Part shown: positions 23,119 through 49,712 of the stretch, piece by piece
How the letters are laid out: each line of letters starts with the position of its first letter
Position numbering within the stretch: position 1 is the first letter of the stretch
Origin: an uncultured Alphaproteobacteria bacterium
GTDB taxonomy: Bacteria; Pseudomonadota; Alphaproteobacteria; RF32; CAG-239
Length of the DNA stretch: 64,000 nt
Direction: 5' to 3'
Assembly: GCA_944391425.1 (NCBI GenBank)
Contig: CALXTO010000001.1
Location: forward strand, 11,066 to 75,065
The notes under the pieces: model-generated
What the model was told of the DNA's origin: nothing
The model's database searches: none
The model's input: the letters and a program-made list of their open reading frames with translations, nothing else
Program-made: the position numbers and the translations under genes

Positions 23119-24882
23119 ATGTCATACGATATGTTGCTACAGCGGGCGCTGGCTTTGCATGACGCCGGACAGCTTGACGAAGCCGAGGCCGTTTACCGCC
23201 AGATATTGGAAACGGCGCCGGAGCAGCCCGACGTGCTCAATCTTCTGGGGTTAGTGGCACAAGCCAAAGGGGCTCAGGACGAGGCTTGCCGCCTGTTTGC
23301 TACGGCCTTGCGCAAAAAGGGAACGGATGATGCCGCCATCTGCTATAACCTCGCCTACTCTCTTCGTTTGTCCGGAAAAATGCATGAAGCCGTCGATTTT
23401 CTGCAGAGAGTGCTGCTGCTCAAACCTGACTTGAAAGAAGCTTATAATGAACTGGGGCTTGCTTTGTGGGATTTACAGCAGCCGGAAACCGCAAGGGAAA
23501 ACTGGAGCAAGGCTTCTGCTCTGGATCCTTCTTATGCCGCTGCCCGGATCAATCTGGCCAGAAGTTATGAGCAGGAAAATCCCGTGCGGGCAGCCGAAGA
23601 ATTAGAAAAAGTGACGGCGGTTTTTCCCGGCGAAGCGGCGGCATGGTATTATCTCAGCCGTCTCTGTTATCTTAACGGTGATTATGCAAAAGCTTGGGAT
23701 GCCGCAATTAAGGCCAAAGAACAGGCTCCGGCATCTGATGATGCAAGGGTGATGCTGGCCCTGCTCTCTTTGCAGGAAAAACAGGAGGCAAATGCAAAAA
23801 TTTATTTTATGAAAGCCGTAATGTTAAATCCCGGCAATATTGACGCCGTACTCGGGCTGGCGAATCTTAACAGTCGCGAAGGCAATTTTGAAGAAGCGGA
23901 AAAAGGATATCTGCAGGCAATTGAGCTGGATGCGGAAAATTTTGACGCCCACAATAATTATGCCGAAATGTTGTATCGGCAGAACCGCCTTGCCGAGGCT
24001 CTGGAAGAATATCGGAAAGCTGTTATCATCAATCCCAAAGCTGCGGAAGTCAGCAACAATCTTGCGTTGATTTTGAAAGACCGGGGCGAATATGAAGAAG
24101 CCTTGGGTTTGCTGTTTAACGCATTTATCTTGAAGCCCAACATGGAAGAAACTGCCGTCAATTTGGCCGAGACACTGACTTTATTTTACCGCTGTGAACC
24201 GCAAAAAACGGTTGAATTGGCTGAAAAATGGCTTGAATATGCTCCGGATAACGTTTTTGCCACCCGTGTGTGTGCCGCACTGAAAGGACAAAAAAGTGAA
24301 AATAATCAGATTTATGCTCAGAAGTTGTTTGACCATTTTGCTGATCGTTACGAACTGGTTATGCAGAATCTGGGTTATACAGTTCCGCTGGCTATGGGAA
24401 GAATTGCAGGATCTCTTAAAGGTTCCGTTGTGGATTTGGGGTGTGGTACGGGGCTTGTGGGCAAAGTTCTTAAAAATTCTGAAAATACACTGACCGGCGT
24501 GGATATTTCAGCCCAAATGCTGAAAAAAGCACAAGAAAAAGGTGTTTATGACTGTTTAGCGCAAGATGACATCGCGGCATATTTGCGGCGGAACGGTAAC
24601 TTTGACTGGGCGGTTGCCGCCGATGTTTTCGGATATGTGGGCGATTTGTCTGAGATGGTGGCTTTATGCCGCGGGAAGAATTTGCTTTTTTCGACGGAAA
24701 ATGCGGAAGATACTGAAACTTACAAGATGTCCGAGAGCGGACGTTACCGCCATAATCCGGCTTATGTGAGAAAGCTTTTGCAGGAGAACGGTTTTGAAAA
24801 AATCAATGCGGAAGAACTTTTGCTGCGTTCGGAAAATGGTATTGCTGTTTCGGGAACAATCTGGAAAGCTGAGAGCCGATAA
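23119..24882 (+). CDS. TPR-repeat protein with C-terminal class I SAM-dependent methyltransferase domain
   Basis: 587 aa. Many 34-aa TPR-like repeats in the first ~380 aa, followed by VVDLGCGTGLVG (methyltransferase motif I). Confidence 0.8.
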   Translation: MSYDMLLQRALALHDAGQLDEAEAVYRQILETAPEQPDVLNLLGLVAQAKGAQDEACRLFATALRKKGTDDAAICYNLAYSLRLSGKMHEAVDFLQRVLLLKPDLKEAYNELGLALWDLQQPETARENWSKASALDPSYAAARINLARSYEQENPVRAAEELEKVTAVFPGEAAAWYYLSRLCYLNGDYAKAWDAAIKAKEQAPASDDARVMLALLSLQEKQEANAKIYFMKAVMLNPGNIDAVLGLANLNSREGNFEEAEKGYLQAIELDAENFDAHNNYAEMLYRQNRLAEALEEYRKAVIINPKAAEVSNNLALILKDRGEYEEALGLLFNAFILKPNMEETAVNLAETLTLFYRCEPQKTVELAEKWLEYAPDNVFATRVCAALKGQKSENNQIYAQKLFDHFADRYELVMQNLGYTVPLAMGRIAGSLKGSVVDLGCGTGLVGKVLKNSENTLTGVDISAQMLKKAQEKGVYDCLAQDDIAAYLRRNGNFDWAVAADVFGYVGDLSEMVALCRGKNLLFSTENAEDTETYKMSESGRYRHNPAYVRKLLQENGFEKINAEELLLRSENGIAVSGTIWKAESR

Positions 24883-36512: not shown

Positions 36513-36530
36513 CCGCTGTATTCGCTGATG

Positions 36531-36606
36531 GGTGCGTAGCTCAGTTGGTAGAGCAACTGACTCTTAATCAGTGGGTCTGGGGTTCGAACCCCCACGCGCC
36601 TACCAG
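36531..36606 (+). tRNA. tRNA-Lys (anticodon CTT)
   Basis: Hand-folded. Acceptor GGGTGCG/CGCGCCT, D stem GCTC/GAGC, anticodon stem ACTGA/TCAGT with loop CTCTTAA, T arm TGGGG-TTCGAAC-CCCCA, encoded ACCA. Confidence 0.95.
36591..36606 (+). repeat. direct repeat, left copy (last 16 nt of tRNA-Lys)
   Basis: CCCCACGCGCCTACCA recurs exactly at 36828-36843 (offset 237). Confidence 0.9.
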
Positions 36607-36652: not shown

Positions 36653-36827
36653 TGGGGCGTGGATGGTTCTCACGTTCTTGCTCGTAGGCTCTGCTGCTGC
36701 AATCGCCAACTCGCTTCGGTCACTCAGTTTGTAACGTTTGCGGCGTCGGTAACCATCGACTGGCAAACGAACAAACTTTCGCCTGTCGTCAGAAAAAGCT
36801 TCACCGGAGCTTTTTCTTTCCTCCAGC
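36653..36827 (+). other. conserved structured tRNA-flanking element, copy B (candidate ncRNA or miniature integrative element)
   Basis: Collinear with 1998-2188 downstream of tRNA-Val. Shared blocks: GTTCTT..GCTCGTA; a 32-nt block 29/32 identical; a 25-nt block 23/25 identical; CCTCCAGCC. Inter-block distances are identical (57 and 55 nt). Two helices are supported by compensatory changes. No conserved ORF. Confidence 0.6.
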
Positions 36828-36843
36828 CCCACGCGCCTACCAT
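36828..36843 (+). repeat. direct repeat, right copy (partial tRNA-Lys 3' end, T-stem 3' strand to CCA)
   Basis: Exact 16-nt copy of 36591-36606, preceded by CCTCCAG instead of the T loop. It is not part of a foldable tRNA. Confidence 0.9.
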
Positions 36844-36845
36844 TA

Positions 36846-36873
36846 AAAAGCCTGCTTTTTTTGCAGGCTTTTA
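36846..36873. terminator. hairpin terminator after the partial tRNA-Lys copy
   Basis: AAAGCCTGC (36848-36856) / GCAGGCTTT (36864-36872) stem with a T7 loop. It also abuts the stop of the minus-strand GT2 gene. It is probably the ancestral tRNA-Lys terminator and acts bidirectionally. Confidence 0.6.
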
Positions 36874-37806
36874 TTTTGCTTTGAATGTGAATGTTTTATT
36901 GAATAGCTCCAATGTATATGTTTTGCTGCCCAGCAATTTAGTGCGGGATAAGCTGATGAAGTTTTTTATTTTGAAATAGTTTTTTGTTTTTTTCATGTGT
37001 TTGAGGATTTTTGCTTTATCACTGCTATGGCTAAGTTCATACATTAGAGTCTGCTTTTGCATTTGTTTCATCTTGTTCTTTTGATGAATAGTGTTGTTGC
37101 CGTGGATGCGATATGCAAACAGTATTTTGTCTAGATACTTGAATTTGCCGATTTTTGATAATTGCAGCATCATATAAAGGTCTTCCAACGGTGCTTCCGT
37201 TCTAAACACGAAGCGGTCAAGCGCCGTTTTGCGGATGCAGTAGCCGTTGGGAATGTAATTTCCCTTTAACAGAGAATAATAATCGCCAAAGTTTTTTCCG
37301 TTGAAATCAACGTCACGGCGGTGTTTTTTCCAGTATGAAGACACCGTTTTGTGTTCCGCTCCGTGATAAGGATGCAAATGCTGTCTGGCATCCCAGCCGG
37401 CAATTTTAGAAGCGGCGTCAATAATTTGATTGTCGCCGACAACTAAAACGTAATCTGGATTTTGTTCCAGAAAACCAACTTCTTCGGAGATGGCTTCCGG
37501 TTTGGCGATATCATCCGAAGCAATCATATAAATATATTTTCCCTCGGATTTTGCCAAAAGACGATTGATTGTCGTGCATAGCCCGGCGTTGGGCTGAGTT
37601 TCAAAGCTGAACTTTTGAAAACGTCGACAGCATAGCGGTTCCAGTTCTCTTATTTTTTGTGCAGTGCAATCGGAAGAGCCGTCATCTATAATGATCAGTT
37701 CTATATTATCATAAGTTTGATTTATAATAGAAAGTATCGTTTCGGCAACATATTTTTCGTGGTTATATGCTGCAATGATAACGGACACCAAACTATTTGT
37801 AGGCAT
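36871..37806 (-). CDS. family 2 glycosyltransferase
   Basis: 311 aa. [40 protein letters not shown] is a classic GT2 N-terminus with a DDG motif. Confidence 0.88.
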
Positions 37807-38881
37807 TTACAATGTCCACCAGCTGTTGTATTTCCGTATCGGTCATAACCGGGCTTATCGGCAGTGATATAATTTCACTGTGAATTTTTTCGCTGATTGG
37901 GTAGCTGCGGGTGTTCCATTCAGTATAAGCAGGTTGTTTATGCGGCGGAGTTGGATAATGAATAAGCGTTTGTACGCCGTTATCCGTAAGATATTTTTGA
38001 AAGCGTTCCCTTTCCGGCGTCCTGACGGCAAATACATGCCAAACATGTGCTTTTTCATCATAAGTCTGCGGCAGGGTTATCAGCGGGTTTTTGATATTTT
38101 GACGATAATATTCGGAAATTTGCCGGCGTTTTTGATTGTCGGCATCCAGATATTTTAATTTAACATCCAAAACTGCAGCCTGAATTTCATCCAGGCGAGA
38201 ATTTACACCTTTATAGAGGTTATGGTATTTTACATCTGAACCATAATTTGCCAGAGCTTTGATTTTGTTGTACAATTCTTCATCATTGGTTGTTACGGCA
38301 CCGCCATCGCCCAAACAACCGAGGTTTTTGCCCGGATAGAAAGAAAATCCCGCGGCATCGCTTAAATTTCCGGTCCGGCGTCCCCGGTATTCCGCGCCGT
38401 GTCCCTGTGCGGCATCTTCAATAACTTTTAATTTATATTTTTGAGCCAGTTGCCAGATTTTTTCCATCTGTACGGCTTGTCCGTAAAGGTGGACAACCAT
38501 AATAGCTTTGGTTCGGGGTGTAATTTTCTCTTCAATCAAGTCGGGATTAATGTTGTAAGTATTGATGTCCGGTTCGACAAGCACCGGAGTGGCGCCGTTT
38601 TGAGAAATGGCCAGGATGCTGGCAATGTAAGTGTTGGAAGGAACAATGATTTCGTCCCCTGCCCCAAATCCGTAAGCGCGGATAATCAGCGTAAGCGCAT
38701 CAAGGCCGTTGGCAACGCCCCATGCATGTTTTACACCGCAGTAATCGGCAAAATTTTGCGCAAATTTTTTGTTTTCATCTCCCTGCAGATACCATCCCTT
38801 ATCAAGGATTGTTTTGATCCGAGTGTCTATTTCTACACGAAAACGGTTGTTTATTTTTTCCAAATCTAAAAATTTAATCAT
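37793..38881 (-). CDS. DegT/DnrJ/EryC1/StrS-family sugar aminotransferase
   Basis: 362 aa. PLP-dependent sugar aminotransferase layout with the [10 protein letters not shown] lysine motif. Confidence 0.88.
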
Positions 38882-38913: not shown

Positions 38914-40311
38914 CTATTTTTCATTAAATAGGGTGTCTAAAATTTCTTTTTCTTTACTTAAAGAATGATCCATCCGATTAAGTGTGTACAATGCGCCGGA
39001 GAAATGAAACCATGTTTTATTATTTTGAGGGTCTATTTTATCCTGTGTAAACGAAAAGCCGTAACAATCTGATTTTTGAAAATCCGCTTTTATTTTCCTA
39101 GTCCAATAAACCATGGAAAATCCACTGGTAGGAATGTGTATTTTTTCCAACATTTCCTTTCTCAGCAAATAAGGATAGCTGAGTATTTTTCCTCCGTTTT
39201 GAAGAAAATTGTATAAATCATCCCATAATGTCGGGTTATGTGGAATGGTGGTTGCCCAATCGTAAATATCGGTTGCGATGACAATCGCTTTTAAATTATC
39301 TTTATTATGCAGGGGTATTGGGAAAAATATCCAGTCAACCCAGATATCTGTTTTTGTTCCTAAATCTTCTGCATATTTTCCGGTGTTATCATAATCGTTG
39401 AAACGGATGACAATATCATGTCCGTCAATTTCTTTTCCTGTCTTTTTTCCGTTTTGTTGCGGACCATTGCCGATGATAGCCACAGTCTTATTTTGGATCA
39501 GTTTTTCATAGGTGTTGGCATTTTCATTTATTTTCAATGCGTTGTATATTGCATTTGCTTTAAAAAATATATCATCTTTATATCCTAAGTCATATGCAAA
39601 AGATGATAACAACAAATGCTTTTTTATATTTTCCATGCCAAAGTTTTTTTCGTAATAGTGAAAAATCTTTTCAGCTAAAGAATATTGTTCTTTATATAGG
39701 CAGAGGTTAAAATATCTGCCCCAAAACCAAATTCCATAATTGTTAAAAATATCATTATCAATTTCCTCTTTGACGACTTTCAGCCAATCATTTTCAAAAT
39801 CATGTGCCGCCAATAAAGCGTTCAATAATTTTATTTTGCTCGCGAAAGTATCAATATCTTTATTGATAAAATCAGCGTAAATTTGAGCATATTGAGATGA
39901 AGTTATTCCTCCGGTTACTTTATACAACTCATCTATTATATGAGATAATTCAGTTGAAAAAATTTCTTTTAAATGACCACACTGAGGTGTTTGAAAAAAA
40001 GAACGTTCCAGCGCATTACCAAAGAGAGAATTTGTTCTTAGAAAGTCATGCTCAGGAAGCATCTGTTTTATAATATCAGGAAAAAGTTCTTTCAGAATAA
40101 GGATGTTTTTTATATCTGCAATTTGAGAGTTGACAGTGTTGGCAAAGTTATCCAGTTTGTTATTTAAAATATGATTACTCTCTTGGATATCCACTTTGGC
40201 AGATTCCGTGGATAACCCTTTGGCAACTATTTGTTTTTGCAAATGTTTCCAAATTTTGTATTTATAATATGTCAAAAATGATACTTTTTTACCTCGTATT
40301 TTTTTAGTCAT
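38914..40311 (-). CDS. two-domain protein: N-terminal helical region plus C-terminal GT29-like (eukaryote-type) sialyltransferase domain
   Basis: aa 277-325 [46 protein letters not shown] aligns with sialyl motif L (human ST6Gal1 ...[30 protein letters not shown], from memory). aa 393-419 PTSGFSM...CYGF resembles motif S. aa 449-454 HSLSKE fits motif VS (H-x4-E). Confidence 0.65.
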
Positions 40312-40328: not shown

Positions 40329-41414
40329 TTATTTTTTAGATTGCTTGTTCTTTTGGAGCTTTCCCTTTAAATAATTGGTAATTGGTCGCTCAATACATAT
40401 GGCTGCACCCCCCCCCACAACAATACAAAAAGTTGTAAAAAGAAGTAACAGATGGACATCGTTTTTTATCAGATTTGTTTCTAAGATATATTTGCGTAAA
40501 ACAGCAATACAGGGAAAATGCATAACGTAAATTGCATAGGAAAAGCTGCCTAAAACACCAAAAATTTTATGGTTAAACAACTGGGAAAAGAATCCTTTAT
40601 TTTGAAGAAATAAAAATAAAAGAATGATGAATAGCAGCTGATAATATATTTCTTCTGAAAATTTGGGGTTATGCCAAGCAACTGATTTAATAAAATATAA
40701 AAAGATAAAAATTTCGGTGACAGATATAAGTATTTTTTTCCCCAGCCATGTTTTTTCATTATCTAAAGAAAAGGAGCTATAAATAATAGCACACAGTATT
40801 CCCAAGCTCATACCGCCAAGTGCCTCAATCATTCCTACTGTAAGTCGCAGGGATGGAAGAGCTATTGCGCCATATCCTTTTCCATTGGGAGAGTAAGTCA
40901 AAATGATAAAGCAAAAAAATGAAAAAAAGGCACAGATGTTTATTATTTTTTGTCTGCTATTTTGTTTAATTAAACAATAGAAAAAAATACTTGTAAAAAA
41001 CAAAACACAAATAAACCATGTTGCCGGATTATTGGAACCGCCTTTTACAATTCCCGTTCCAGCGCTGATAAAGAAGATGTTGAGGGTGTCTAAATATTTA
41101 TTGTAAGTTCCCAGAAAAATGAAAGGTACAAAAGAGATTGCCATGAGCGGCCACAATCGAATAACTTTTTGCAAAATAAAGTCGGAAAGCTTTTCTGGCT
41201 TAGAGATATTGGTTATATATAAAAAAAAGCCACTTAAAATAAAGAAAGCGTAAACGATATTCGGACCAATAAGTCCACCTTTTACAGCTAAATTTTGTAG
41301 AAAAGAAGTGTTATGAAAATTATTTAAAACTCCAACTACATGATAATACATAATCATTATTGCAAACATAAATCTTAAAAAATCTATGTTATATAATCTT
41401 TTTGTTGGGGACAT
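40329..41414 (-). CDS. acyltransferase family 3 (membrane O-acyltransferase)
   Basis: 361 aa, about 10 TM. The N-terminal IDFLRFMFAIMIMYYH motif is typical of Acyl_transf_3. Confidence 0.85.
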   Translation of the reverse strand: MSPTKRLYNIDFLRFMFAIMIMYYHVVGVLNNFHNTSFLQNLAVKGGLIGPNIVYAFFILSGFFLYITNISKPEKLSDFILQKVIRLWPLMAISFVPFIFLGTYNKYLDTLNIFFISAGTGIVKGGSNNPATWFICVLFFTSIFFYCLIKQNSRQKIINICAFFSFFCFIILTYSPNGKGYGAIALPSLRLTVGMIEALGGMSLGILCAIIYSSFSLDNEKTWLGKKILISVTEIFIFLYFIKSVAWHNPKFSEEIYYQLLFIILLFLFLQNKGFFSQLFNHKIFGVLGSFSYAIYVMHFPCIAVLRKYILETNLIKNDVHLLLLFTTFCIVVGGGAAICIERPITNYLKGKLQKNKQSKK

Positions 41415-41439: not shown

Positions 41440-42801
41440 TTATTTTTTTTCTTTTTGAGTTGCCCGTATTGTCAATAAGGAAAAAAACTTATACGTTTTT
41501 TTATTTTTATATGTTTTGATTTTTAAAAACGGTAAAAAAGAAAATAGATAAAACCTCTTTGCTTTTCTTTTTTTCTTTATCTTTAACAGAGGCAGACCGC
41601 AAAATTTATATTTATAAACCAAGTTTAGTGAAGATGTTGAATTTAAGATATCACAATTTTCAAGTGAATTTTTTATTTTTTGTATTTGAAGAAAATTATA
41701 AACACTTGAATATTGTAAGCTGCTCTTGGACATCTGTTTTTTAAAACAGGAAGCGACATATGCTGGGGAGTGTTTTTTCTTTATGTAGGAAAAACACGCG
41801 GAGCCATATTTTTCTTTGTATCCTTTATTATAAATATTGTTAATTATTGTTTTGAAATTCATTGTTTTTAATTTTAATTCTTTTTGCTGATTGGGATAAA
41901 AACCCAGTACCATATCTGTTGTTTCGGATAACAATGTAAAGGTATCCGAATCAAAGCTTTTCATTTCAGAAGGAATTATAAAAGATGGTAATTTTAATGC
42001 GGCTCCTTCCAATACGGATGTTCCCATGGCAAACAGTGCATCGACTTGTGAAGACAGATAAGTGTTTAATTTATCGTCAGTTAAAATGCCGCACAATTTT
42101 ACGGATATATTTGATGCTGCGTTTTTATTTATTTGGTTAATTGAAATTCCGTCTCCAATTATATGTATGTTAATTTTCTTTTGAGGCCTATATTTGGCAG
42201 CTTGAGCAATGACGTTATTAATGGCATGCACTTTATCCGGGACAACTCTGCCTAAAATAGCTATGTTAATTTCGTTATTATTAATTATTTGAGTTGTTGC
42301 GGTTACTGTCTTTGGAGGTACAATCAACGAAACATAGTCATATCCAAAAGGGAGGCCCGTAATTGTGTTGTTCGTTAAACGATGAGAACCATCCACAAAA
42401 ACCTGAGCGTTATGGGCAAAGACTTCAGACATAAAGTACTTTAGTTCTACCTGAGAAAAATGCATTACTCTTTTTAATACAGGAAGGCATTCATTGTGCC
42501 AATTGTGAAATAAAATCTGTGAATTCGGATTTAACAAAGGAAGTTTATGTACTTCATATATTGGCATAAATATAAGGCATTCTTCCGTGAGAAGAAACTC
42601 GGAACAGTTGTCTTTATATTCTATAAATCTAACTTTTTGAGATTCCTTTATATCGGGAATAGTTCTTGAAAAACCGTCTTTATAATCGACGTAATAAACA
42701 TTATACTGTTTATCTTTAGCTAATTCATTTGCTAAACGAACCAACCAATACGGACCGCCTCCAATTTTTTTATCAGGGTAAAAAATACAAATATTTTTCA
42801 T
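41440..42801 (-). CDS. putative GT-B fold glycosyltransferase with a basic repeat C-terminal tail
   Basis: Start set at the ATG at 42801, preceded by AAGGTGGA (MKNICIFYPDKKIGGGP). ILGRVVPDKV...HIIGDG...GTSVLEGAALKLPSFII resembles GT4-type motifs. The tail has LPLLKIKKK / LPFLKIKTYKNKK repeats. Confidence 0.55.
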   Translation of the reverse strand: MKNICIFYPDKKIGGGPYWLVRLANELAKDKQYNVYYVDYKDGFSRTIPDIKESQKVRFIEYKDNCSEFLLTEECLIFMPIYEVHKLPLLNPNSQILFHNWHNECLPVLKRVMHFSQVELKYFMSEVFAHNAQVFVDGSHRLTNNTITGLPFGYDYVSLIVPPKTVTATTQIINNNEINIAILGRVVPDKVHAINNVIAQAAKYRPQKKINIHIIGDGISINQINKNAASNISVKLCGILTDDKLNTYLSSQVDALFAMGTSVLEGAALKLPSFIIPSEMKSFDSDTFTLLSETTDMVLGFYPNQQKELKLKTMNFKTIINNIYNKGYKEKYGSACFSYIKKKHSPAYVASCFKKQMSKSSLQYSSVYNFLQIQKIKNSLENCDILNSTSSLNLVYKYKFCGLPLLKIKKKRKAKRFYLFSFLPFLKIKTYKNKKTYKFFSLLTIRATQKEKK

Positions 42802-42814
42802 TTGTTCCACCTTT

Positions 42815-43987
42815 TTAGCTAAGTGCGATTTTTCTTGATAATTCTCGAATAAGATCATGTCCGTCCCAATAAGGGCCGATATCCATTGCTTTTCCTATAG
42901 GAACAATCCGATCTATGCCGCGGACATTATTATTGATAATAGCCTGCCGAAAATCTTTTTCAGAAAGACCATAATGAGTCACTGTCTGGAACTTCTCGGT
43001 GGTAACCGAAAATAACTCCTCCCAGGAACGAAGCGAGTGTTCATAAAAATAGCCGCCATTTCCTCGGTTTTTAATTATTTCCGGAGTTAATTTGTTTATT
43101 TCAATACGATATGCCAGGTTTTTAAACCTGTTTAGTTTTTGAAAGTTTGATAAATCGACAGCATCTATGCAGGCATGTGTGTATTTATCTACAACGACGG
43201 CATCCTGCAAATTATATTTGACAGATGCTTCTTTAATAACGGCATTCCAAAAGATTTCTCTTGCTCGCAATGAATCATTTTGCCATAAAATAATCTGCGG
43301 GGAAGAACAAGCATTTTGATCCATCAAGTAAGTATCATTATAAAAGTTTTCGGCTAACCTTTTGATGTTATCGGGGGTTGTTTCCAGAATTTTCTGTCCG
43401 TCAATTATACATACCGAATATCTGTCTGCAAAACTTATGTCTACGCATCGCGGCTGACAAGGCATGCTTTTTACCATTGCAATAGTTTTGTCGCCGCCCC
43501 AAATCATTCGCGCATCAGCCAAAGAACATAATTGTGCTGTAATATCGTTGTCACGAGGATATTTAATGAAAGCTGTTCGCTTTTCTATTTCTGGGTACCG
43601 AGGTAAAATTTCTTTTAACAGATTAGAGATGATGTCAATTTGCGGAAATTCTTTACTGGGTAACCGAACAATATTTGCATTTCCTGCCAACAGAGAAAAA
43701 AAGTAAGAAAAAGCAAAATTTATAGGGATATTTGATGGGGTGATATGGAAACATAATCCCCGCCCCATGCGGTCTTCTGTGTTTCCGAAGTCTGATTTTA
43801 ATTTTGTGATATTGGCTTTTCTAGCCCAAAAAGCCAGTGCAGATAAATCAGGATATGTTCTGACTATCGGAGATTTTAACAAATTCGCCGATATTTCTGA
43901 TAAAAATTCGCAGACATTCGTATCGTACGTTTGAAAGGCAGTTCTATTCAGTTCTGAATTACCAATTAAATATTTAACGTCGCTCAT
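42815..43987 (-). CDS. LuxC-like acyl-CoA/acyl-ACP reductase
   Basis: CFHITPSNIPINFAFS and the overall aldehyde-dehydrogenase-like LuxC family layout. The ATG at 43987 overlaps the LuxE-like stop (ATGAGCGACGTTAA), implying translational coupling. Confidence 0.7.
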   Translation of the reverse strand: MSDVKYLIGNSELNRTAFQTYDTNVCEFLSEISANLLKSPIVRTYPDLSALAFWARKANITKLKSDFGNTEDRMGRGLCFHITPSNIPINFAFSYFFSLLAGNANIVRLPSKEFPQIDIISNLLKEILPRYPEIEKRTAFIKYPRDNDITAQLCSLADARMIWGGDKTIAMVKSMPCQPRCVDISFADRYSVCIIDGQKILETTPDNIKRLAENFYNDTYLMDQNACSSPQIILWQNDSLRAREIFWNAVIKEASVKYNLQDAVVVDKYTHACIDAVDLSNFQKLNRFKNLAYRIEINKLTPEIIKNRGNGGYFYEHSLRSWEELFSVTTEKFQTVTHYGLSEKDFRQAIINNNVRGIDRIVPIGKAMDIGPYWDGHDLIRELSRKIALS

Positions 43988-45050
43988 AAGTATCACTACA
44001 CCCCCGTATTTCTGCATTTTTAATTCGCCCGTGTATTTTGAAATATTTCCCTTTTCTTCCGCAAGGACAATCATCAATCCCTAAGATTTCCCCTTCATCT
44101 TCTGTCAGAATGATATGTCCCGGATATGATGACGGTAGGACAGATAACAATTCAATTAGCCCTTTTTGTCCTATTGGGGCTTCTGAAAAATCATATGGAC
44201 ACCGAATGATAACATCTGAATAATTTGAACAATGCATATGGCCATGTTCACATTCAACAAAAACAGAGCCTAATTGTTCAGCCATTCCATAATAATTGTA
44301 AACTTTTACGTTTCCTAAACACTCTTGGACGTTACGATTATATGTTGCCGTATCAACAGCTTGGTCTTTAAGCTTCTTCCAGCCGCCGATATGAAATAAA
44401 ATTCCGTTTTTCAGGTTGAATTTTTTTCCTCTTTTTTTCAATTCCTGTATAACAAACTGCCAAATCATATAAGTATACCCGAACATGAGGATTGTTTCAT
44501 TTTGGTGTTTTTCCAAAAATTCTTCTATTTTTGAAATATTTATTTGCATATCAGCATCCAATGCATAGGTAATATCTTTACCAAAAATTGAAAAGCCTAT
44601 GATGCCGGCGCCGCGAGCTGAATACATTGAACGGTCTTTTTTTATCATTTCTGTATCAAGAAGCAAAAGAGGAAGTCTTTGTTTTCCAATAAAAGAAGAT
44701 ATTATTTCATTAAGCGTTTTTGTTTGATTATGCACGTTTTCGGCATCTAATAGAATTTTAGAAACGGCCTGCCCTGATGTTCCCGATGATGTTAACGTCT
44801 TAACGATTTTTTCTTGCGGAACACTTTTCAAAGTATATGTTTTAAATAGCCTGACAGGAATAAACGGTAATTCACTTACGTCTATCGAATGTGTGATGTC
44901 ATAATTCAGAGCATCAAGTATTTTTTTGTATTCTATACAATTCTTGTAGTGAAAATGCGTTAACCTGCTCAAAATTTCTTTTAAAATTTCATTTTTTTGT
45001 TGCTGATTTAAGCTATATGGTGGTATTGCAAACAGTTCTTCTAGTGTCAT
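43974..45050 (-). CDS. LuxE-like acyl-protein synthetase / adenylate-forming enzyme
   Basis: 358 aa. LTSSGTSGQ P-loop-like motif and the length and arrangement of the LuxE family. Confidence 0.7.
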   Translation of the reverse strand: MTLEELFAIPPYSLNQQQKNEILKEILSRLTHFHYKNCIEYKKILDALNYDITHSIDVSELPFIPVRLFKTYTLKSVPQEKIVKTLTSSGTSGQAVSKILLDAENVHNQTKTLNEIISSFIGKQRLPLLLLDTEMIKKDRSMYSARGAGIIGFSIFGKDITYALDADMQINISKIEEFLEKHQNETILMFGYTYMIWQFVIQELKKRGKKFNLKNGILFHIGGWKKLKDQAVDTATYNRNVQECLGNVKVYNYYGMAEQLGSVFVECEHGHMHCSNYSDVIIRCPYDFSEAPIGQKGLIELLSVLPSSYPGHIILTEDEGEILGIDDCPCGRKGKYFKIHGRIKNAEIRGCSDTYERR

Positions 45051-45718
45051 TTATGGATTACCTCTTTTAAAAAGATATCTTGCGGCGAGCTAAAATTTGC
45101 ACCTAAGAAGGCATATAAATTCATTACCGGTGTGTTCATTGAACTTATACGCCCCTCAATTTTCTTATATCCCTGATTTCTTGCCCAAAGGCATGCTTTT
45201 GCGTACAATCCGAGAGCTGCTCCGGTTGTACGATATTTTTCTTCCACGGCTGCTAAATTTATAAATGTGCTATCGGGAGAAGTTTCCTGTAATGCTAAGA
45301 AACCTATGATCTGATTCTTAAAACGACAGATTAACACTTCAGATAAATTATTAATCCATTCTCTTAAAACTAAAGCTGCTGTGTTGGAGTTGCAGTTCGG
45401 AGTTATGTGAAAGCGCCTATCATATTTAAAGTTGCGAATGGCAATTTCCAAAATCTCAGATTTGTATTCTGTACTAAATTCTATCGGAAGCCGTATCATC
45501 TTTTCTAAATCGGCTGAAATTCTGGATAAAAAGATCTCTGTTTTGATTGTCCTGTCAACCCAAACAAAACCTTGTTCCTGCAAAAGCTTAATTGTTGCCG
45601 GTTCAGAAGAAATTTGGAGCCTTATTACATCAAACATGGATATATCAGAAAGAACTGGTATTTCATTGGCAATATCCAGAAGCACTAAATTTTCATATTT
45701 TTTTATTTGTTGAGTCAT
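45047..45718 (-). CDS. GNAT-fold acyltransferase
   Basis: 223 aa. The C-terminal half has a GNAT core (VEEKYRTTGAALGLY...NTPVMNLYAFLG). 4-nt overlaps with both neighbours. Confidence 0.6.
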   Translation of the reverse strand: MTQQIKKYENLVLLDIANEIPVLSDISMFDVIRLQISSEPATIKLLQEQGFVWVDRTIKTEIFLSRISADLEKMIRLPIEFSTEYKSEILEIAIRNFKYDRRFHITPNCNSNTAALVLREWINNLSEVLICRFKNQIIGFLALQETSPDSTFINLAAVEEKYRTTGAALGLYAKACLWARNQGYKKIEGRISSMNTPVMNLYAFLGANFSSPQDIFLKEVIHK

Positions 45719-47118
45719 GCAGATTTATCCAATTCTTTGTATAGTGTTTTGCCTGCCTCATTTTTGGGAATTTGTTCAATGTATTTAACCGTAAAGGCAA
45801 CAAAATTTAAATTGCTTGTTTCCGCAACAAACTTTTGTACTTCTTTTATTTTTTGATTATCTGTGATATAGATACACATTGCATCATCTATCCCGGCACA
45901 TGCACAATCCAGTGTCTGGAAACGAGTTTTGATCAATCTCTCTGTTTCATCCAGATTAACTCTGTTTCCAAAAATTTTTAAAAATCTTTTTTTCCTGCCT
46001 ACAATATAAAAATATCCGTCCGCATCAAATTTTGCCATATCTCCGGTAACCAGGCGACCGTTAAATTCATCTTCTTTGCATAAATCATTTCCGTCTTCAG
46101 CGTATCCTAAAGCGACATTTTTACCTTGATATACCAATTCTCCTATAGTTTCAGGCTGGGTAATTGTTTTTCCCTCTGCATCAACTAATGAAAAAAGCCC
46201 CCCCGGAATAGCAATTCCCATAGATCCGATTTTTGCCAGAGATTGTTCCGGAGGTAGGTATCCCATTCTGGCTGTCGCTTCCGTTTGTCCATACATTACC
46301 ACAAAGTTTTTGTTGTTTTCTTTAGCATATTGCGCAAATTTCTCATGCAATTCAGGAGACAACTTCCCTCCCGCCTGTGTCAATGTCTGCAAACACGGGA
46401 GTTTACGTCTTTGAAAACGTAATTTGTCAAGCATTTCATAGGTATACGGTACTCCGGAAAGCGAGGTTACCTGATATTTTTCTATCAGTTCCCAAAATTC
46501 TCTTTGTATGATGGTGTAAGGACATAAGACGATACCTGCTCCCTGCATTAGATGACTATTAATAACGGATAGCCCAAATGTGTAGTTCATAGGCAGGGAA
46601 GTTATCGCCCTTTCTGCAGAGGTTATTTTTAAATAATCAATGATTGATTCTGTGTTATTGAGAATATTTTCATAACTTAATCTTACAAATTTGGGACTTC
46701 CCATTGAGCCTGAAGTTGTAAGTAACAGAGCCAGTTTGCCATATATTGGGTAATAATGGGGCCATGTTAATTCTATAAGAGAATATCCCCATTTATTAAA
46801 TATTTCTTTTCCGCTGATGTTCAAAGGAAGTTTTTTATTAGCCCAGAGGTAGCGGGGATGATACAAATTACAAAAATTACTCAGCAATTTGTGATCAATA
46901 TGTTCATCCAGCATTAAGGGAACATTATTATGCTCTATAGCCGATAAATAACCTACCAGAGAACCTAATGTATTGGAGCAAAGATTAAATATAAGGCTGT
47001 GAGGTTCAATATATCTGCTTAATTCCTGGCAGTATTCTGAAAGCTCTTGGTATGTTATTTCCTTACCATCAGGTTCAATGACAGCTATGCTCTGTTTAAA
47101 CTTATTAAAATTCCACAT
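45715..47118 (-). CDS. AMP-dependent synthetase/ligase (adenylation enzyme)
   Basis: LLTTSGSMGSPK (A3 core), YGQTEA (A5), GDMAKFDADGYFYIVGRKK (A7/A8). The ATG at 47118 overlaps the ACP stop. The track start at 47151 is a TTG inside the ACP gene. Confidence 0.85.
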   Translation of the reverse strand: MWNFNKFKQSIAVIEPDGKEITYQELSEYCQELSRYIEPHSLIFNLCSNTLGSLVGYLSAIEHNNVPLMLDEHIDHKLLSNFCNLYHPRYLWANKKLPLNISGKEIFNKWGYSLIELTWPHYYPIYGKLALLLTTSGSMGSPKFVRLSYENILNNTESIIDYLKITSAERAITSLPMNYTFGLSVINSHLMQGAGIVLCPYTIIQREFWELIEKYQVTSLSGVPYTYEMLDKLRFQRRKLPCLQTLTQAGGKLSPELHEKFAQYAKENNKNFVVMYGQTEATARMGYLPPEQSLAKIGSMGIAIPGGLFSLVDAEGKTITQPETIGELVYQGKNVALGYAEDGNDLCKEDEFNGRLVTGDMAKFDADGYFYIVGRKKRFLKIFGNRVNLDETERLIKTRFQTLDCACAGIDDAMCIYITDNQKIKEVQKFVAETSNLNFVAFTVKYIEQIPKNEAGKTLYKELDKSA

Positions 47119-47341
47119 TGTATTTAGCCAGAATTTCTTTTCCTTTTTCAAAAGAATTCAAATCAACGATATCGTCGGGCTCCATCATGATGTCAAAACT
47201 TTCTTCCAAAGCGGCAATTAATCCCATGTGTCCGACAGAATCCCAAGCGTCAATTCCTTGAAATTTTAAATTAATTGCTTGGTTTTCATCTATTTCGAAT
47301 GTATCCATAAATGCTTTTGTATATTTTTCCAAATTAGTCAT
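47105..47341 (-). CDS. acyl carrier protein
   Basis: 78 aa, acidic. GIDAWDSVGHMGLI contains the DS phosphopantetheine attachment motif at the expected position. Confidence 0.85.
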   Translation of the reverse strand: MTNLEKYTKAFMDTFEIDENQAINLKFQGIDAWDSVGHMGLIAALEESFDIMMEPDDIVDLNSFEKGKEILAKYNVEF

Positions 47342-47358
47342 TTTTTTCTCCTTATTGT

Positions 47359-48108
47359 TTAGTTTCTTCCGCCATCAACTCGAATGATTTGTCCCGTGAT
47401 ATATCGTGATGCATCTGAAGCCAGAAATACGGCTGCGTCAGCTATTTCTTCAGGCTTTCCAAGGCGATTGAGATATGTATTATTTTGATCTTTCTGCAAC
47501 ACATCCTCAGACATATCTTTGATAAGCGGTGTTTGAGTTATACCTGGGGCCAGACAGTTTGCCCTGATATTGTAATGTCCTAATTCTTTAGCTAAAGATT
47601 TGGTCATGGAATAAACTGCAGCTTTACTGGCTCCATATAATGTTTCTCCCTCAACGCCATCTAATGCAGCCATTGAAGACATATTGATTATGGACCCGCC
47701 CTGAGGCTGGCGGATCATTAATTTTGATACTAACTGTGTCAAATAAAATACCGCAAAAAAGTTTACTTCAAACAATTGCCTTGCCATATCCATGGAACTC
47801 ATTTGCAGTAAAGCTTCTTTTAATATTCCGGCATTGTTTATTAATACATCAACGGGACGTTTGTTGCTACGAATTTTCATAACCATATTTTTTACGGCAT
47901 CGTAATCCGTCAAGTTTACGGAGAATGTTTCTATTGTAACGCCATTGTTTTGTGAAATCTGTGAAACAAATTCTGCAAAATCGTCCGAAATATTTATATC
48001 ACAAGCCCAAATATTAGCTTTTTGTTCTGCAAAAGCTTTGACCATTGCTCTGCCCATGCCGCCACAACAGCCGGTGAGTAAAACATTTTTGTTTAACAAT
48101 CCAGACAT
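47359..48108 (-). CDS. short-chain dehydrogenase/reductase (FabG-like)
   Basis: 249 aa. TGCCGGMG cofactor motif, NNAG, and the S...YGASK catalytic triad. Confidence 0.88.
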   Translation of the reverse strand: MSGLLNKNVLLTGCCGGMGRAMVKAFAEQKANIWACDINISDDFAEFVSQISQNNGVTIETFSVNLTDYDAVKNMVMKIRSNKRPVDVLINNAGILKEALLQMSSMDMARQLFEVNFFAVFYLTQLVSKLMIRQPQGGSIINMSSMAALDGVEGETLYGASKAAVYSMTKSLAKELGHYNIRANCLAPGITQTPLIKDMSEDVLQKDQNNTYLNRLGKPEEIADAAVFLASDASRYITGQIIRVDGGRN

Positions 48109-48638
48109 TATTTACAAAACCTTTCTATATACTTTTTGTTTTTCTCATAGTTTTCTTTAGTGAGATTAAAATAAATAAGTTCGTTATCTTGGGCGGTTAT
48201 GGTACATCCCCACATTTTGAAATAATTAATCATATTAGAATTATTGTGACGTGTATCTGTCCGTATATTTTGCGTTCCGAGAACATTATAAGCGTAATTT
48301 TTTAACAGCATATCTCCCTCTATACCTTCTTGAATCCTAGAAGTTTGAGACATTACCCATCGTCCCGTACAAACACTGTCATCCTGAATATCATAGATAC
48401 TTAGGCATCCTAAAGGGAGGCCTTCTTTGTTTTCGACGATAAAATAGTATTCATCATCCAAGGTCTGATATCTTTTTATATATTCTATTTGCTTTTGAAG
48501 ATCCGGCGAAGTTTTATGAAGGAAACGAGCCCCTTTTCCCTCTGTTCTTAATTTTAAAATAAATGCAGCATCATCTGTCGTTACTTCACGCAAATTGACA
48601 TATTTTCCAATTAAAGCAGTTTGTTCAATTTTCTTCAT
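48108..48638 (-). CDS. GNAT N-acetyltransferase (RimJ/L-like)
   Basis: 176 aa, Acetyltransf_3-like. TAATG overlap with the SDR gene. Confidence 0.7.
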   Translation of the reverse strand: MKKIEQTALIGKYVNLREVTTDDAAFILKLRTEGKGARFLHKTSPDLQKQIEYIKRYQTLDDEYYFIVENKEGLPLGCLSIYDIQDDSVCTGRWVMSQTSRIQEGIEGDMLLKNYAYNVLGTQNIRTDTRHNNSNMINYFKMWGCTITAQDNELIYFNLTKENYEKNKKYIERFCK

Positions 48639-49047
48639 TTTTATCTTTCTTAAAAGTACATATGTTCAAGTATTCGTTATAATCTGAAATATATTCAGAA
48701 GCATCATATAGGTGATCAGATAGGATTAATAAGGTTGTTTGAGGAGAAAAATCATACATCTCTTTCCATACCATATTGTTCAGCCACAATCCTTGCTCCG
48801 GTGTGTTCAAAGTGTATATTTTCTCTTCATGAGGAAGGCGTATTTTTACTTTGCAGCTACCTTGCAGAGGAATAAGGACGAATTGGGATTTTTTGTTGGC
48901 GTGGCAGCCGCGCGGAGAATCGTTTTGCGTATTATAGATGTAGAAAACTCTTTTAATCTCAAAAGGGATGTCTTTATTGTTTTCAATGGCAACAAGCGAG
49001 CCTCTTGCATCACCTCTGACGATGAAATTTAAAAGTCTATAATTCAT
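48625..49047 (-). CDS. WxcM/FdtA-like cupin (sugar 3,4-ketoisomerase), paralog 2
   Basis: 140 aa. DARGSL...IPFEIKRVFYIYN...PRGCHANKK...L.G is the FdtA_WxcM signature. Confidence 0.8.
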   Translation of the reverse strand: MNYRLLNFIVRGDARGSLVAIENNKDIPFEIKRVFYIYNTQNDSPRGCHANKKSQFVLIPLQGSCKVKIRLPHEEKIYTLNTPEQGLWLNNMVWKEMYDFSPQTTLLILSDHLYDASEYISDYNEYLNICTFKKDKNEEN

Positions 49048-49319
49048 AACAAGCCCTTTACTCTTCTTCGGCGGCGGAGGAGAGTCGAAAAGGATATGCT
49101 TATGATGATAAAAAAGTTACCATTATACAAAACTAAATGTCCACTCAATATACGTGAACATTTAGAATACTGCACTAAGAGCTTTCGACGGCTCCGCACT
49201 AATTTTAAGTGCTAAACGCAAAATTTACATTTCGGAAGTTAGGCTATTATCAAAGTTTCTTTATGTCAAGACAAAAAAATTAAATTTGTTTTTCTGTTAA
49301 ATAGCTTTCAATATAAAAA

Positions 49320-49712
49320 TTATATCTCTTTTTTAAATTGAGAATAATCTCTTATATAATCTGTTTCATCATAAATTTCGGAAGCAAGTACCATAACAAC
49401 GCAATCTGGCGAAAAATTCGTAAATTCCCGCCATACGTTTCCTGATATCAAAAGACCTTGTTCGGGTGAGTTAAAATGAAAAGTCTGTCTTTGAGAGCCG
49501 TCATCTACAGTGAAGTCACAGCTCCCTGAAGGACAAAAAATGACTTGCTGTAATTTTCGATGCGAATGTTTGCCGCGAATGGCATCTTTGGAAGTTCCGT
49601 AAATGTAGTAAACTCGTTTGATATTAAATGGAATATTGCCGTTGCTTTCTAAATTTATAACAGAGCAACAGTCTTTATTCTCAGCGCTAAAATTGATTAA
49701 ACAGTAACTCAT
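49320..49712 (-). CDS. WxcM/FdtA-like cupin (sugar 3,4-ketoisomerase), paralog 1
   Basis: 130 aa. IPFNIKRVYYIYGT...IRGKHSHRKLQQVIFCPSGS shows the same fold signature as paralog 2. Confidence 0.8.
   Translation of the reverse strand: MSYCLINFSAENKDCCSVINLESNGNIPFNIKRVYYIYGTSKDAIRGKHSHRKLQQVIFCPSGSCDFTVDDGSQRQTFHFNSPEQGLLISGNVWREFTNFSPDCVVMVLASEIYDETDYIRDYSQFKKEI

Follow-up and report, generated by a model that had tools for sequence, protein, structure and literature searches.

A GT29-family protein with a helical N-terminal domain in a variable surface-glycan island of an uncultured alphaproteobacterium, probably using a CMP-activated ulosonic acid

What does a protein carrying the sialyl motifs of animal glycosyltransferases (GTs) do in a bacterium, and which sugar does it transfer? 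The question is raised by the open reading frame (ORF) at positions 38914-40311 of a 64,000-nucleotide stretch of contig CALXTO010000001.1 (assembly GCA_944391425.1, positions 11,066 to 75,065), from an uncultured member of the Alphaproteobacteria. We refer to this whole stretch as the window. An earlier note, made from the sequence alone, had pointed to the motifs, to a helical N-terminal domain, and to a possible link with host-glycan mimicry or inter-domain gene transfer. Here, we find that the ORF encodes a genuine member of family GT29, and not of GT42 or Maf/DUF115. Bacterial GT29 proteins have been known since 2018, and this one is an expected member of that known, biochemically uncharacterised group. 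Our reading, to which we give a probability of about 0.7, is that it acts as a soluble or peripherally membrane-associated cytoplasmic transferase with a cytidine monophosphate (CMP)-activated ulosonic acid as donor and an acceptor in the glycan of its own operon. The gene and its parts are as follows (aa, amino acids).

38914..40311, minus strand: GT29 gene, complete ORF with an ATG start, 465 aa, N-terminal helical domain followed by a C-terminal GT29 domain
39511..40311, minus strand: N-terminal domain, residues 1-267, helical by DSSP and pLDDT (predicted local distance difference test) of an AlphaFold2 model
38917..39510, minus strand: GT29 catalytic domain, residues 268-465, GT-A variant 2 (sialyltransferase) fold
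39346..39483, minus strand: sialyl motif L, residues 277-322, VAIIGNGP...DLGTKTD, aligned to ST6Gal1, ST6GalNAc2, and ST3Gal1
39055..39132, minus strand: sialyl motif S, residues 394-419, PTSGFSM...DCYGF
39001..39012, minus strand: motif III position, residues 434-437, WFHF, with the family consensus HYY(D)
38950..38967, minus strand: sialyl motif VS, residues 449-454, HSLSKE (H-x4-E)

Family membership is apparent from profiles as well as from structure. The Pfam model PF00777 (Glyco_transf_29) matches with 47.8 bits (gathering cutoff, 23; E 1.7e-12). It is the only Pfam family to match the 465-aa protein, even at E<=10; among the models without a match are those for GT42 and MptE/DUF115 as well as Capsule_synth, the family of the beta-Kdo (3-deoxy-D-manno-octulosonate) transferases GT99/GT107 (WbbB, KpsC/KpsS). 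NCBIfam gave no meaningful match; its sole hit, ketol-acid reductoisomerase (E 0.08), was rejected as a spurious Rossmann match. A single-sequence search of the PDB aligns motif L alone (E ~3e-3 to ST6Gal1, ST6GalNAc2, and ST3Gal1). When we used a family profile built from a 25-sequence alignment of homologues, human ST6Gal1 was matched over the whole catalytic domain (E 3.3e-11, profile positions 259-437), and the alignment covers motifs L, S, III, and VS of both ST6Gal1 and ST3Gal1.

The AlphaFold2 model (mean pLDDT 83, predicted template modeling score 0.77) has two short strands at residues 2-11, is all-helical over residues 12-272, and continues as a Rossmann-like alpha/beta domain. In a Foldseek search of the PDB, ranks 1 to 30 are exclusively GT29 structures (ST6Gal1, ST6GalNAc2, ST3Gal1, ST8Sia3), with probability 1.00 and E values of 3e-5 to 4e-3, while the GT42 enzymes (Cst-I/II) appear at ranks 38 and 43 (E 0.17-0.21). 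Among the viral structures of BFVD, GT29 proteins of phages, poxviruses, herpesviruses, and mimiviruses rank highest, and the viral MptE-like/DUF115 models reach E values of 0.09-0.16. The earlier note had named GT42 and DUF115/Maf as the families that might fit better; the significant family match and the GT-A variant 2 fold of the prediction both speak for GT29 instead.

The three motifs that the earlier note had described lie where it placed them and are backed by Pfam and by the profile. Across the 25 homologues, 18 positions are invariant, all of them inside motifs and all retained here (A278, G281, N282, G292, I295, D296, V301, I302, R303, F304, N305, D316, G318, K320, G397, F419, H449, and E454). 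The invariant core of motif L in the family is G-x-x-ID-x-x-D-x-VIRFN and D-x-G-x-K, and from its sequence this motif would bind the CMP donor. Motif S (PTsG..YGFSF in the profile) aligns with PSSGMLG...VDIYEF of ST6Gal1, and H449 and E454 of motif VS align with H-PLLY-E of the same enzyme. The catalytic role of this His is established for ST6Gal1 and ST3Gal1, and by analogy His449 is the probable catalytic base. At motif III, the profile's hyyd aligns with YYYQ of ST6Gal1; the His of WFHF falls on the H of HYY in the majority of homologues, and the remaining positions are degenerate.

The eukaryotic motif-L Cys, which forms a disulfide with motif S, is a Val in this protein, and its only Cys residues are at 111, 204, and 416. 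No transmembrane helix is predicted (maximum Kyte-Doolittle 19-mer score, 0.85). The absence of such a helix together with the replaced disulfide Cys fits a cytoplasmic enzyme. The gene has a GC content of 31.8%, compared with 45.6% outside the surrounding island, and an identical allele (0 nucleotide differences) was recovered from two other independent samples.

The earlier note took GT29 to be, in essence, a family of eukaryotes and viruses, and this premise is wrong. Petit et al. (2018, Sci Rep 8:2946; PMC5811610) described 23 bacterial GT29 sequences, 19 of them alphaproteobacterial, which keep the sialylmotifs and have neither a transmembrane anchor nor the L-S disulfide (PMC5811610). 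All 40 of the 40 database homologues that we retrieved carry PF00777, NCBI gives several of them the name "glycosyltransferase family 29 protein", and RefSeq plasmids hold examples given the family 29 name by the PGAP annotation pipeline; our protein itself drew only weak partial matches from plasmid and phage collections. To survey the group more widely, we scanned one genome per GTDB species with a two-peptide pattern, a search whose results do not include the window's own genome. It returned 84 stretches encoding GT29 relatives, from which 80 loci in many phyla were kept. These include Gastranaerophilales/Melainabacteria, Akkermansia, Treponemataceae, Lachnospiraceae, Desulfovibrio, and Microbacterium, as well as Moraxella nonliquefaciens, Neisseria, Helicobacter ganmani, Idiomarina, Colwellia, and Rhizobiales. 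Idiomarina was named by Petit et al., and relatives of their other genera recur as well. The encoded proteins range from 200 to 1355 aa, and many homologues come from gut or rumen metagenome-assembled genomes (MAGs).

The bacterial GT29 domain is highly modular, as loci L007, L010, L032, L048, L054, and others illustrate. In some database homologues it is fused to GT1/GT4, GT2, or Capsule_synth domains, and a locus sometimes has two GT29 genes. In the distant homologue P0038, PF05159 stands beside PF00777 as a separate domain. A stretch of a 484-kb uncultured jumbo phage (LR756508.1, 324797-324973) is 45% identical to motif L of our protein, and BFVD holds an entry named [quoted passage not shown]; together, these two records indicate that GT29 domains circulate in phages too.

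Could the gene nevertheless have come recently from a eukaryotic host or a eukaryotic virus, as the suggestion of inter-domain transfer implied? The Pfam and PDB matches to animal enzymes and the foreign base composition of the island might be taken that way. However, in structural alignment the protein is only 15-21% identical to animal and viral GT29 enzymes, as against 25-53% to many bacterial homologues, and recent acquisition from a host is therefore unsupported. The transmembrane stem and the disulfide are missing, the family is widespread in bacteria, and related bacterial contigs share the low-GC island in mosaic form. We consider such an origin hardly credible. Petit et al. argue for the opposite direction, with eukaryotic GT29 derived from bacteria by ancient transfer and bacterial sequences at the root of the family (PMC5811610).

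Since the question of function turns largely on the donor, we examined the gene context of the homologues. For 79 loci, we called ORFs up to 9 kb on either side of the GT29 gene and grouped them into clusters without prior labels. The most frequent neighbor is a CTP_transf_3 cytidylyltransferase, found in 34 of the 79 loci (within 3 kb in 27, on the same strand in 29). NeuB is near the GT29 gene in 16 loci; other recurrent neighbors are sugar epimerases/dehydratases (27 loci), RmlA (16), UDP-galactopyranose mutase (10), an HMGL-like enzyme (7), and DegT (6). CTP_transf_3 is the family of NeuA, KdsB, and PseF, and a genome usually has one to a few such genes, so that this linkage to GT29 exceeds chance placement.

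The pattern is sharpest among the five closest orthologues (46-53% identity), in all five of which a CTP_transf_3 gene comes directly downstream of GT29. Genes for an HMGL-like aldolase and a HAD phosphatase are next in P0004 and P0005; P0002 has a cassette of NeuB, cytidylyltransferase, and HAD phosphatase; and the contigs of P0003 and P0006 end soon after the cytidylyltransferase. Two of the five cytidylyltransferases are KdsB-type, two are weakly PseF-like, and one is untyped. Those of the aldolase cassettes pass the NCBIfam KdsB cutoffs (NF009905, 297 versus 255 bits; TIGR00466, 163 versus 155), whereas those of the NeuB-type cassettes are only weakly PseF-like, and the P0002 NeuB is weakly PseI/NeuB-like at 116-121 bits against cutoffs of 340-400.

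The aldolase cassette, which combines a KdsB-type enzyme, a 517-535-aa HMGL-like protein, and a HAD phosphatase, lies at L086:10885-13808 and L093:2662-5569, directly downstream of the GT29 orthologues, and HMGL-like cassette genes were also noted for L003, L004, L008, L024, L033, L048, and L078. The best PDB match of the HMGL-like enzyme is 3dxi ("putative aldolase"), followed by 4-hydroxy-2-oxovalerate aldolases. Its position in the synthase slot, normally that of NeuB or KdsA, suggests that a Kdo-like ulosonic acid may be made through a pyruvate aldolase; we know of no description of such a route.

Two systems outside this group bear on the same point. The plant GT29 protein RCKT1 has been proposed to be a CMP-beta-Kdo transferase (PMC11288761). 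Region 2 of an E. coli kps locus (NZ_CP137739.1, 22266-40802) comprises just an acyltransferase gene, the gene for a GT29 protein of 511 aa, and a GT2 gene, next to KpsC/S-like and ABC transporter genes; over the 18.5 kb examined, kdsB/kpsU is the sole gene for a CMP-sugar synthetase. That GT29 gene occurs in 7 of 5,426 complete E. coli genomes at >=99.8% identity, six times on the chromosome, and its product is a candidate Kdo-transferase or capsule polymerase. Taken together, the cytidylyltransferase and NeuB linkage, the KdsB cassettes, RCKT1, and the kps locus point to CMP-activated 3-deoxy-2-ulosonic acids as the donor class, and not specifically to N-acetylneuraminic acid (Neu5Ac).

In the window, the GT29 gene sits in a low-GC, tRNA-Lys-adjacent, strain-variable surface-glycan island, whose features are these (SDR, short-chain dehydrogenase/reductase; ACP, acyl carrier protein).

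36530..36605, plus strand: tRNA-Lys(CTT), found by ARAGORN, at the island boundary
36825-36842: 18-nucleotide copy of the tRNA-Lys 3' end with 1 mismatch, 220 bp downstream of the tRNA and before the first island gene
36871..37806, minus strand: GT2-family glycosyltransferase, 311 aa, Pfam Glycos_transf_2, last gene of the island operon, with a 14-nucleotide overlap with the DegT gene
37793..38881, minus strand: DegT/DnrJ/EryC1 sugar aminotransferase, 362 aa, starting 32 bp downstream of the GT29 gene
40329..41414, minus strand: Acyl_transf_3 membrane O-acyltransferase (PF01757), 361 aa, immediately upstream of the GT29 gene
41440..42858, minus strand: probable GT-B glycosyltransferase, a 453-472-aa protein conserved beside the GT29 gene in orthologous islands
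42815..49712, minus strand: sugar-modification block by Pfam and NCBIfam, with a LuxC-like reductase, a LuxE-like ligase, a GNAT, an AMP-dependent ligase, an ACP, an SDR, an Acetyltransf_3, and two FdtA
47105-47341, minus strand: ACP, a peptide with a DSV motif
48625-49047 and 49320-49712, minus strand: two FdtA-type 3,4-ketoisomerases, tandem paralogues

All island genes are on the minus strand, in the order FdtA, FdtA, Acetyltransf_3, SDR, ACP, AMP-ligase, GNAT, LuxE-like, LuxC-like, probable GT-B, Acyl_transf_3, GT29, DegT, GT2; those around the GT29 gene overlap or lie no more than ~32 bp apart. The GC content is 35.6%, compared with 45.6% elsewhere in the window. The island is both syntenic and mosaic with orthologous islands, with homology ending at gene boundaries: against L086, identity is 74% for DegT, 46% for GT2, and 47% for FdtA; against L088, it is 74% for LuxE, 72% for the AMP-ligase, 61% for LuxC, and 37% for the Acyl_transf_3 protein. 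The GT2 also has partial NCBIfam matches to TuaG and EpsE. The probable GT-B has no Pfam match; it matches TuaC weakly and is 24-28% identical to its orthologues in L086, L088, and L095, which themselves weakly match Glycos_transf_1. The tandem FdtA paralogues are separated by a 272-bp AT-rich gap, and L086 has one FdtA. The 18-nucleotide repeat of the tRNA end resembles the att-like trace that an integrative element would leave. No matching tRNA repeat was found at the far island border. In the orthologue contig L097, a phage-type integrase gene lies beside the GT29 gene.

FdtA, FdtB, and FdtC form a known system for 3-amino-3,6-dideoxyhexoses. By analogy with it, the sugar-modification block together with DegT would make an N-acylated dTDP (deoxythymidine diphosphate)-3-amino-3,6-dideoxyhexose, that is, would constitute a dTDP-3-acylamino-3,6-dideoxyhexose pathway, and the three island glycosyltransferases would then assemble a glycan. 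Between GT29 and DegT, where each of the four orthologous islands of sufficient length has its donor cassette, the window has a 32-bp junction, in which no cassette remnant or deletion scar was found. An RmlA hidden Markov model (HMM) likewise found nothing in any frame of the 64 kb.

Elsewhere in the window, the annotated genes are mostly housekeeping (Rnf, S4, DsbD, ApbE), and the presence of MlaD and DUF2155 genes indicates a diderm organism. Its MetRS is 82-87% identical to proteins labelled "MAG: Alphaproteobacteria bacterium", which places it among uncultured Alphaproteobacteria. Far from the island, a TOD1_MUCI70 gene (PF04765; 12430-13347, minus strand) adjoins a Glyco_transf_17 gene (GnT-III-like, PF04724; 13566-14456, plus strand); by the Pfam annotation of identical proteins, these are two further typically eukaryotic glycosyltransferase families. 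A 796-aa ORF at 19791-22181 (minus strand) matches no Pfam family at E<=1e-5, and a 587-aa protein encoded at 23119-24882 (plus strand) has many tetratricopeptide (TPR) repeats and, at its C-terminus, a methyltransferase domain of class I. A single flagellin gene (57273-58910, minus strand, 545 aa) lies ~7.5 kb from the glycan island, apart from other flagellar genes and between TrkH/MetRS and DUF2155/MlaD genes.

How would the GT29 protein work in this setting? In the mechanism that we propose, a metal-independent inverting enzyme, soluble or peripherally membrane-associated, would act in the cytoplasm. Motifs L and S would hold a CMP-beta-linked 3-deoxy-2-ulosonic acid, His449 of motif VS would deprotonate the acceptor hydroxyl, and CMP would leave, so that a Kdo-type or nonulosonic acid would be added to a sugar in the glycan that this operon assembles. 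Because GT29 relatives occur in polysaccharide-type loci (GLF, RmlA, ABC-2, kps) and this gene is part of the operon, the acceptor most likely belongs to the glycan that the island itself makes.

Several observations weigh against this proposal. Motif III, the weakest of the four, is degenerate in our protein (WFHF versus HYY). The linkage of the homologues to cytidylyltransferase genes is far above chance placement but was judged without a formal null model, and the literature that we searched yielded no activity data and no biochemical characterisation for any bacterial GT29. The tree of GT29 catalytic domains is not sorted by cassette type: over this domain, P0002, with its NeuB-type cassette, groups with P0004 and P0005 of the KdsB type at 63-67% identity, and the window protein is 50-61% identical to all five orthologues. 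As a consequence, the donor cannot be assigned by homology. The island lacks a flippase, a polymerase, an initiating phosphotransferase, and a Wzm/Wzt exporter, and the acceptor class could thus be a lipooligosaccharide-like glycolipid, a polysaccharide, or a protein. Finally, HMMs built from the neighbor clusters find no cytidylyltransferase, NeuB, or HMGL-like gene in six frames of the 64 kb, which bears out the earlier note's remark that genes for CMP-nonulosonate synthesis are absent, and the ~9 kb past the right window edge holds housekeeping genes and no donor genes either; extension past the left edge added nothing new.

With no donor cassette in the island, another part of the genome would have to supply the CMP-sugar. 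The most economical reading, by analogy, is that the strain draws on a CMP-ulosonate made elsewhere, of which the housekeeping CMP-Kdo pool would be the simplest source. The cassettes of the sister islands would then add to this supply, in the way that E. coli capsule loci carry kpsU as a duplicate of kdsB. For the donor itself, we tentatively favor a Kdo-type sugar that may come from the housekeeping KdsB pathway of a diderm; another nonulosonic acid made elsewhere in the genome comes a close second, and Neu5Ac is improbable at best.

A different view of the missing cassette is that it was lost by recombination, leaving an orphan or functionally silent enzyme with no donor. The contrast between five out of five close orthologues with a downstream cytidylyltransferase and the 32 bp in the window would fit such a loss, as would the empty 64 kb and the further ~9 kb past the right edge. 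Yet the ORF is intact, keeps 18 of 18 family-invariant residues, and lies inside a tightly packed operon, and the same allele, without a single nucleotide difference, is present in independent samples. Diderm bacteria make CMP-Kdo anyway, and the E. coli kps loci likewise merely duplicate kdsB. We therefore think a silent enzyme improbable. More improbable still is a true sialyltransferase that moves Neu5Ac from CMP-Neu5Ac onto a surface glycan and so mimics host sialoglycans. In its favor, sialyl motifs L, S, and VS are there, with a degenerate motif III; vertebrate sialyltransferases are the closest structural matches; NeuB occurs with a cytidylyltransferase and a HAD phosphatase in one orthologous island; and many homologues come from gut or rumen MAGs. 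However, the window contains no neuA, neuB, or neuC; the NeuB of P0002 falls far under the NeuB/PseI cutoffs and its cytidylyltransferase is weakly PseF-like; and two other orthologues are paired with KdsB-type enzymes. A Kdo donor is possible for GT29, as proposed for RCKT1 (PMC11288761). The neighboring pathway, moreover, makes an acylated aminodideoxyhexose that is non-mammalian and typically bacterial. The idea of host-glycan mimicry thus finds no footing in the orthologues, with their KdsB-type or divergent PseF/NeuB-like cassettes, or in the island sugar.

The layout of the protein invites comparison with Caulobacter FlmG, whose TPR domain binds flagellins and which transfers pseudaminic acid through a GT-B-like catalytic domain (PMC7591256). 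On this model, our protein would be a flagellin O-glycosyltransferase, with the helical N-terminal domain binding flagellin and the GT29 domain adding an ulosonic acid. The model can appeal to TPR/PPR-like helical repeats placed before a transferase domain, to the FlmG precedent of TPR plus GT (PMC7591256), to the flagellin gene at 57273-58910, ~7.5 kb beyond the island, and to an island of soluble GTs and sugar-modifying enzymes that has no flippase or polymerase. None of the 80 loci, however, has a flagellin-like gene within ±9 kb of GT29, and homologues with the full N-terminal domain occur in MAGs labelled Akkermansia (L008, L024), a non-flagellated genus. Other homologues lie in capsule or polysaccharide loci (GLF, RmlA, ABC-2, kps), unrelated genes (a kinase, an ABC system, MlaD) separate the flagellin gene from the island, and a GT-B-like catalytic domain means that FlmG is not homologous to GT29. 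We regard flagellin as an unlikely target, and continue to prefer a cytoplasmic transferase acting on the island glycan.

The N-terminal domain deserves a closer look in its own right. It is basic at its start (11 K/R among the first 40 aa); residues 12-131 form long helices predicted with low confidence, and residues ~138-264 a well-predicted alpha-alpha solenoid of stacked helical hairpins. The earlier note had recognized no relatives of this domain, and our searches agree. A phmmer search against 1.84 billion representatives returned 4 proteins, every one a GT29 fusion, and Foldseek with the isolated domain gave nothing significant (best E 0.07). The non-significant top matches are all repeats of the PPR (pentatricopeptide), TPR, and HAT types, including the TPRs of OGT, BcsC, and MamA, and the family profile weakly matches designer PPR proteins. 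The half proximal to the GT29 domain (residues ~160-262, ~100 aa) precedes that domain in 54 of 83 bacterial homologues, and the full N-terminal domain is present in seven scan loci (L004, L006, L008, L012, L014, L024, and L043). Because the phmmer matches are all GT29 fusions and the proximal half recurs so widely, we describe the domain, as modeled, as a family-specific alpha-solenoid whose proximal part is an integral extension of the bacterial GT29 domain. Roles in acceptor selection, oligomerisation, or membrane association are guesses.

The locus thus holds a family member of an expected sort within a variable glycan island that is itself routine, and is no evidence of host mimicry or inter-domain transfer. 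It goes modestly beyond the literature in two respects: the family-specific solenoid N-terminal domain, and the missing linked donor cassette, in which it is alone among its close relatives. A bolder picture, in which the protein would be the first example of a GT29 subfamily in bacteria that transfers a Kdo-type or undescribed ulosonic acid instead of sialic acid, in which the sister islands would make this donor by a PEP-independent aldolase-HAD-KdsB route, with the HMGL-like class II aldolase in the synthase slot, and in which the solenoid would select an unusual acceptor, possibly flagellin, strikes us as doubtful. If true, the solenoid-GT29 protein and the aldolase route would form a new enzyme-plus-pathway combination decorating the surfaces of gut alphaproteobacteria and other gut lineages. 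More generally, bacterial GT29 proteins matter for the question of how sialylation arose in eukaryotes, given their place at the family root (PMC5811610), and are potential soluble, disulfide-free enzymes of the sialyltransferase fold for glycoengineering. One GT29 orthologue found beside a KdsB-plus-aldolase cassette, a NeuB cassette, or none offers a tractable comparison, which could show what bacterial GT29 proteins transfer and how gut strains swap their donor supply.

Among known systems, the closest are the bacterial GT29 sequences of Petit et al., with which our protein shares the Pfam family, the sialylmotifs, the absence of a transmembrane anchor and of the L-S disulfide, and an alphaproteobacterial source. 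It differs from them in its ~265-aa helical N-terminal domain, which is undescribed there, in belonging to a subfamily known mainly from gut and rumen MAGs, and in its place in an aminodideoxyhexose island that, unusually, has no linked cytidylyltransferase. With the vertebrate enzymes ST6Gal1, ST3Gal1, ST6GalNAc2, and ST8Sia3, it has in common the fold (GT-A variant 2), motifs L, S, and VS, and H-x4-E, with motif III in degenerate form. Their type II anchor and stem, conserved disulfide, and Golgi/lumenal context are all missing from it; identity is 15-21%, the helical N-terminal domain is additional, and the donor is probably not Neu5Ac. Plant RCKT1/MGP2 is likewise a GT29 protein in a sialic-acid-free context, and the Kdo-type CMP donor proposed for it parallels the KdsB-type partners of our orthologues (PMC11288761). 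RCKT1, likened here by description only, differs in being a Golgi membrane protein that acts on the pectin rhamnogalacturonan II and in having genetic evidence behind it.

Cst-I and Cst-II of Campylobacter (GT42) and the Maf/DUF115 proteins share a related GT-A variant 2-like fold, CMP-nonulosonate donors, and a bacterial cytoplasmic location, but in Foldseek Cst-I stands at E 0.17-0.21 against 3e-5 for GT29. FlmG has the same two-module layout of N-terminal helical repeats and a C-terminal transferase for a sialic-acid-like sugar; its catalytic domain is GT-B-like, however, the likeness of our N-terminal domain to TPRs is non-significant, and the homologues show no flagellin linkage. The E. 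coli kps GT29 protein (NZ_CP137739.1; WP_063100603.1) is 26% identical over the catalytic domain, is 511 aa long with another N-terminal part, and belongs to a classical ABC-transporter capsule locus. Like the GT29 protein of the window, it has an acyltransferase and a GT2 on its flanks.

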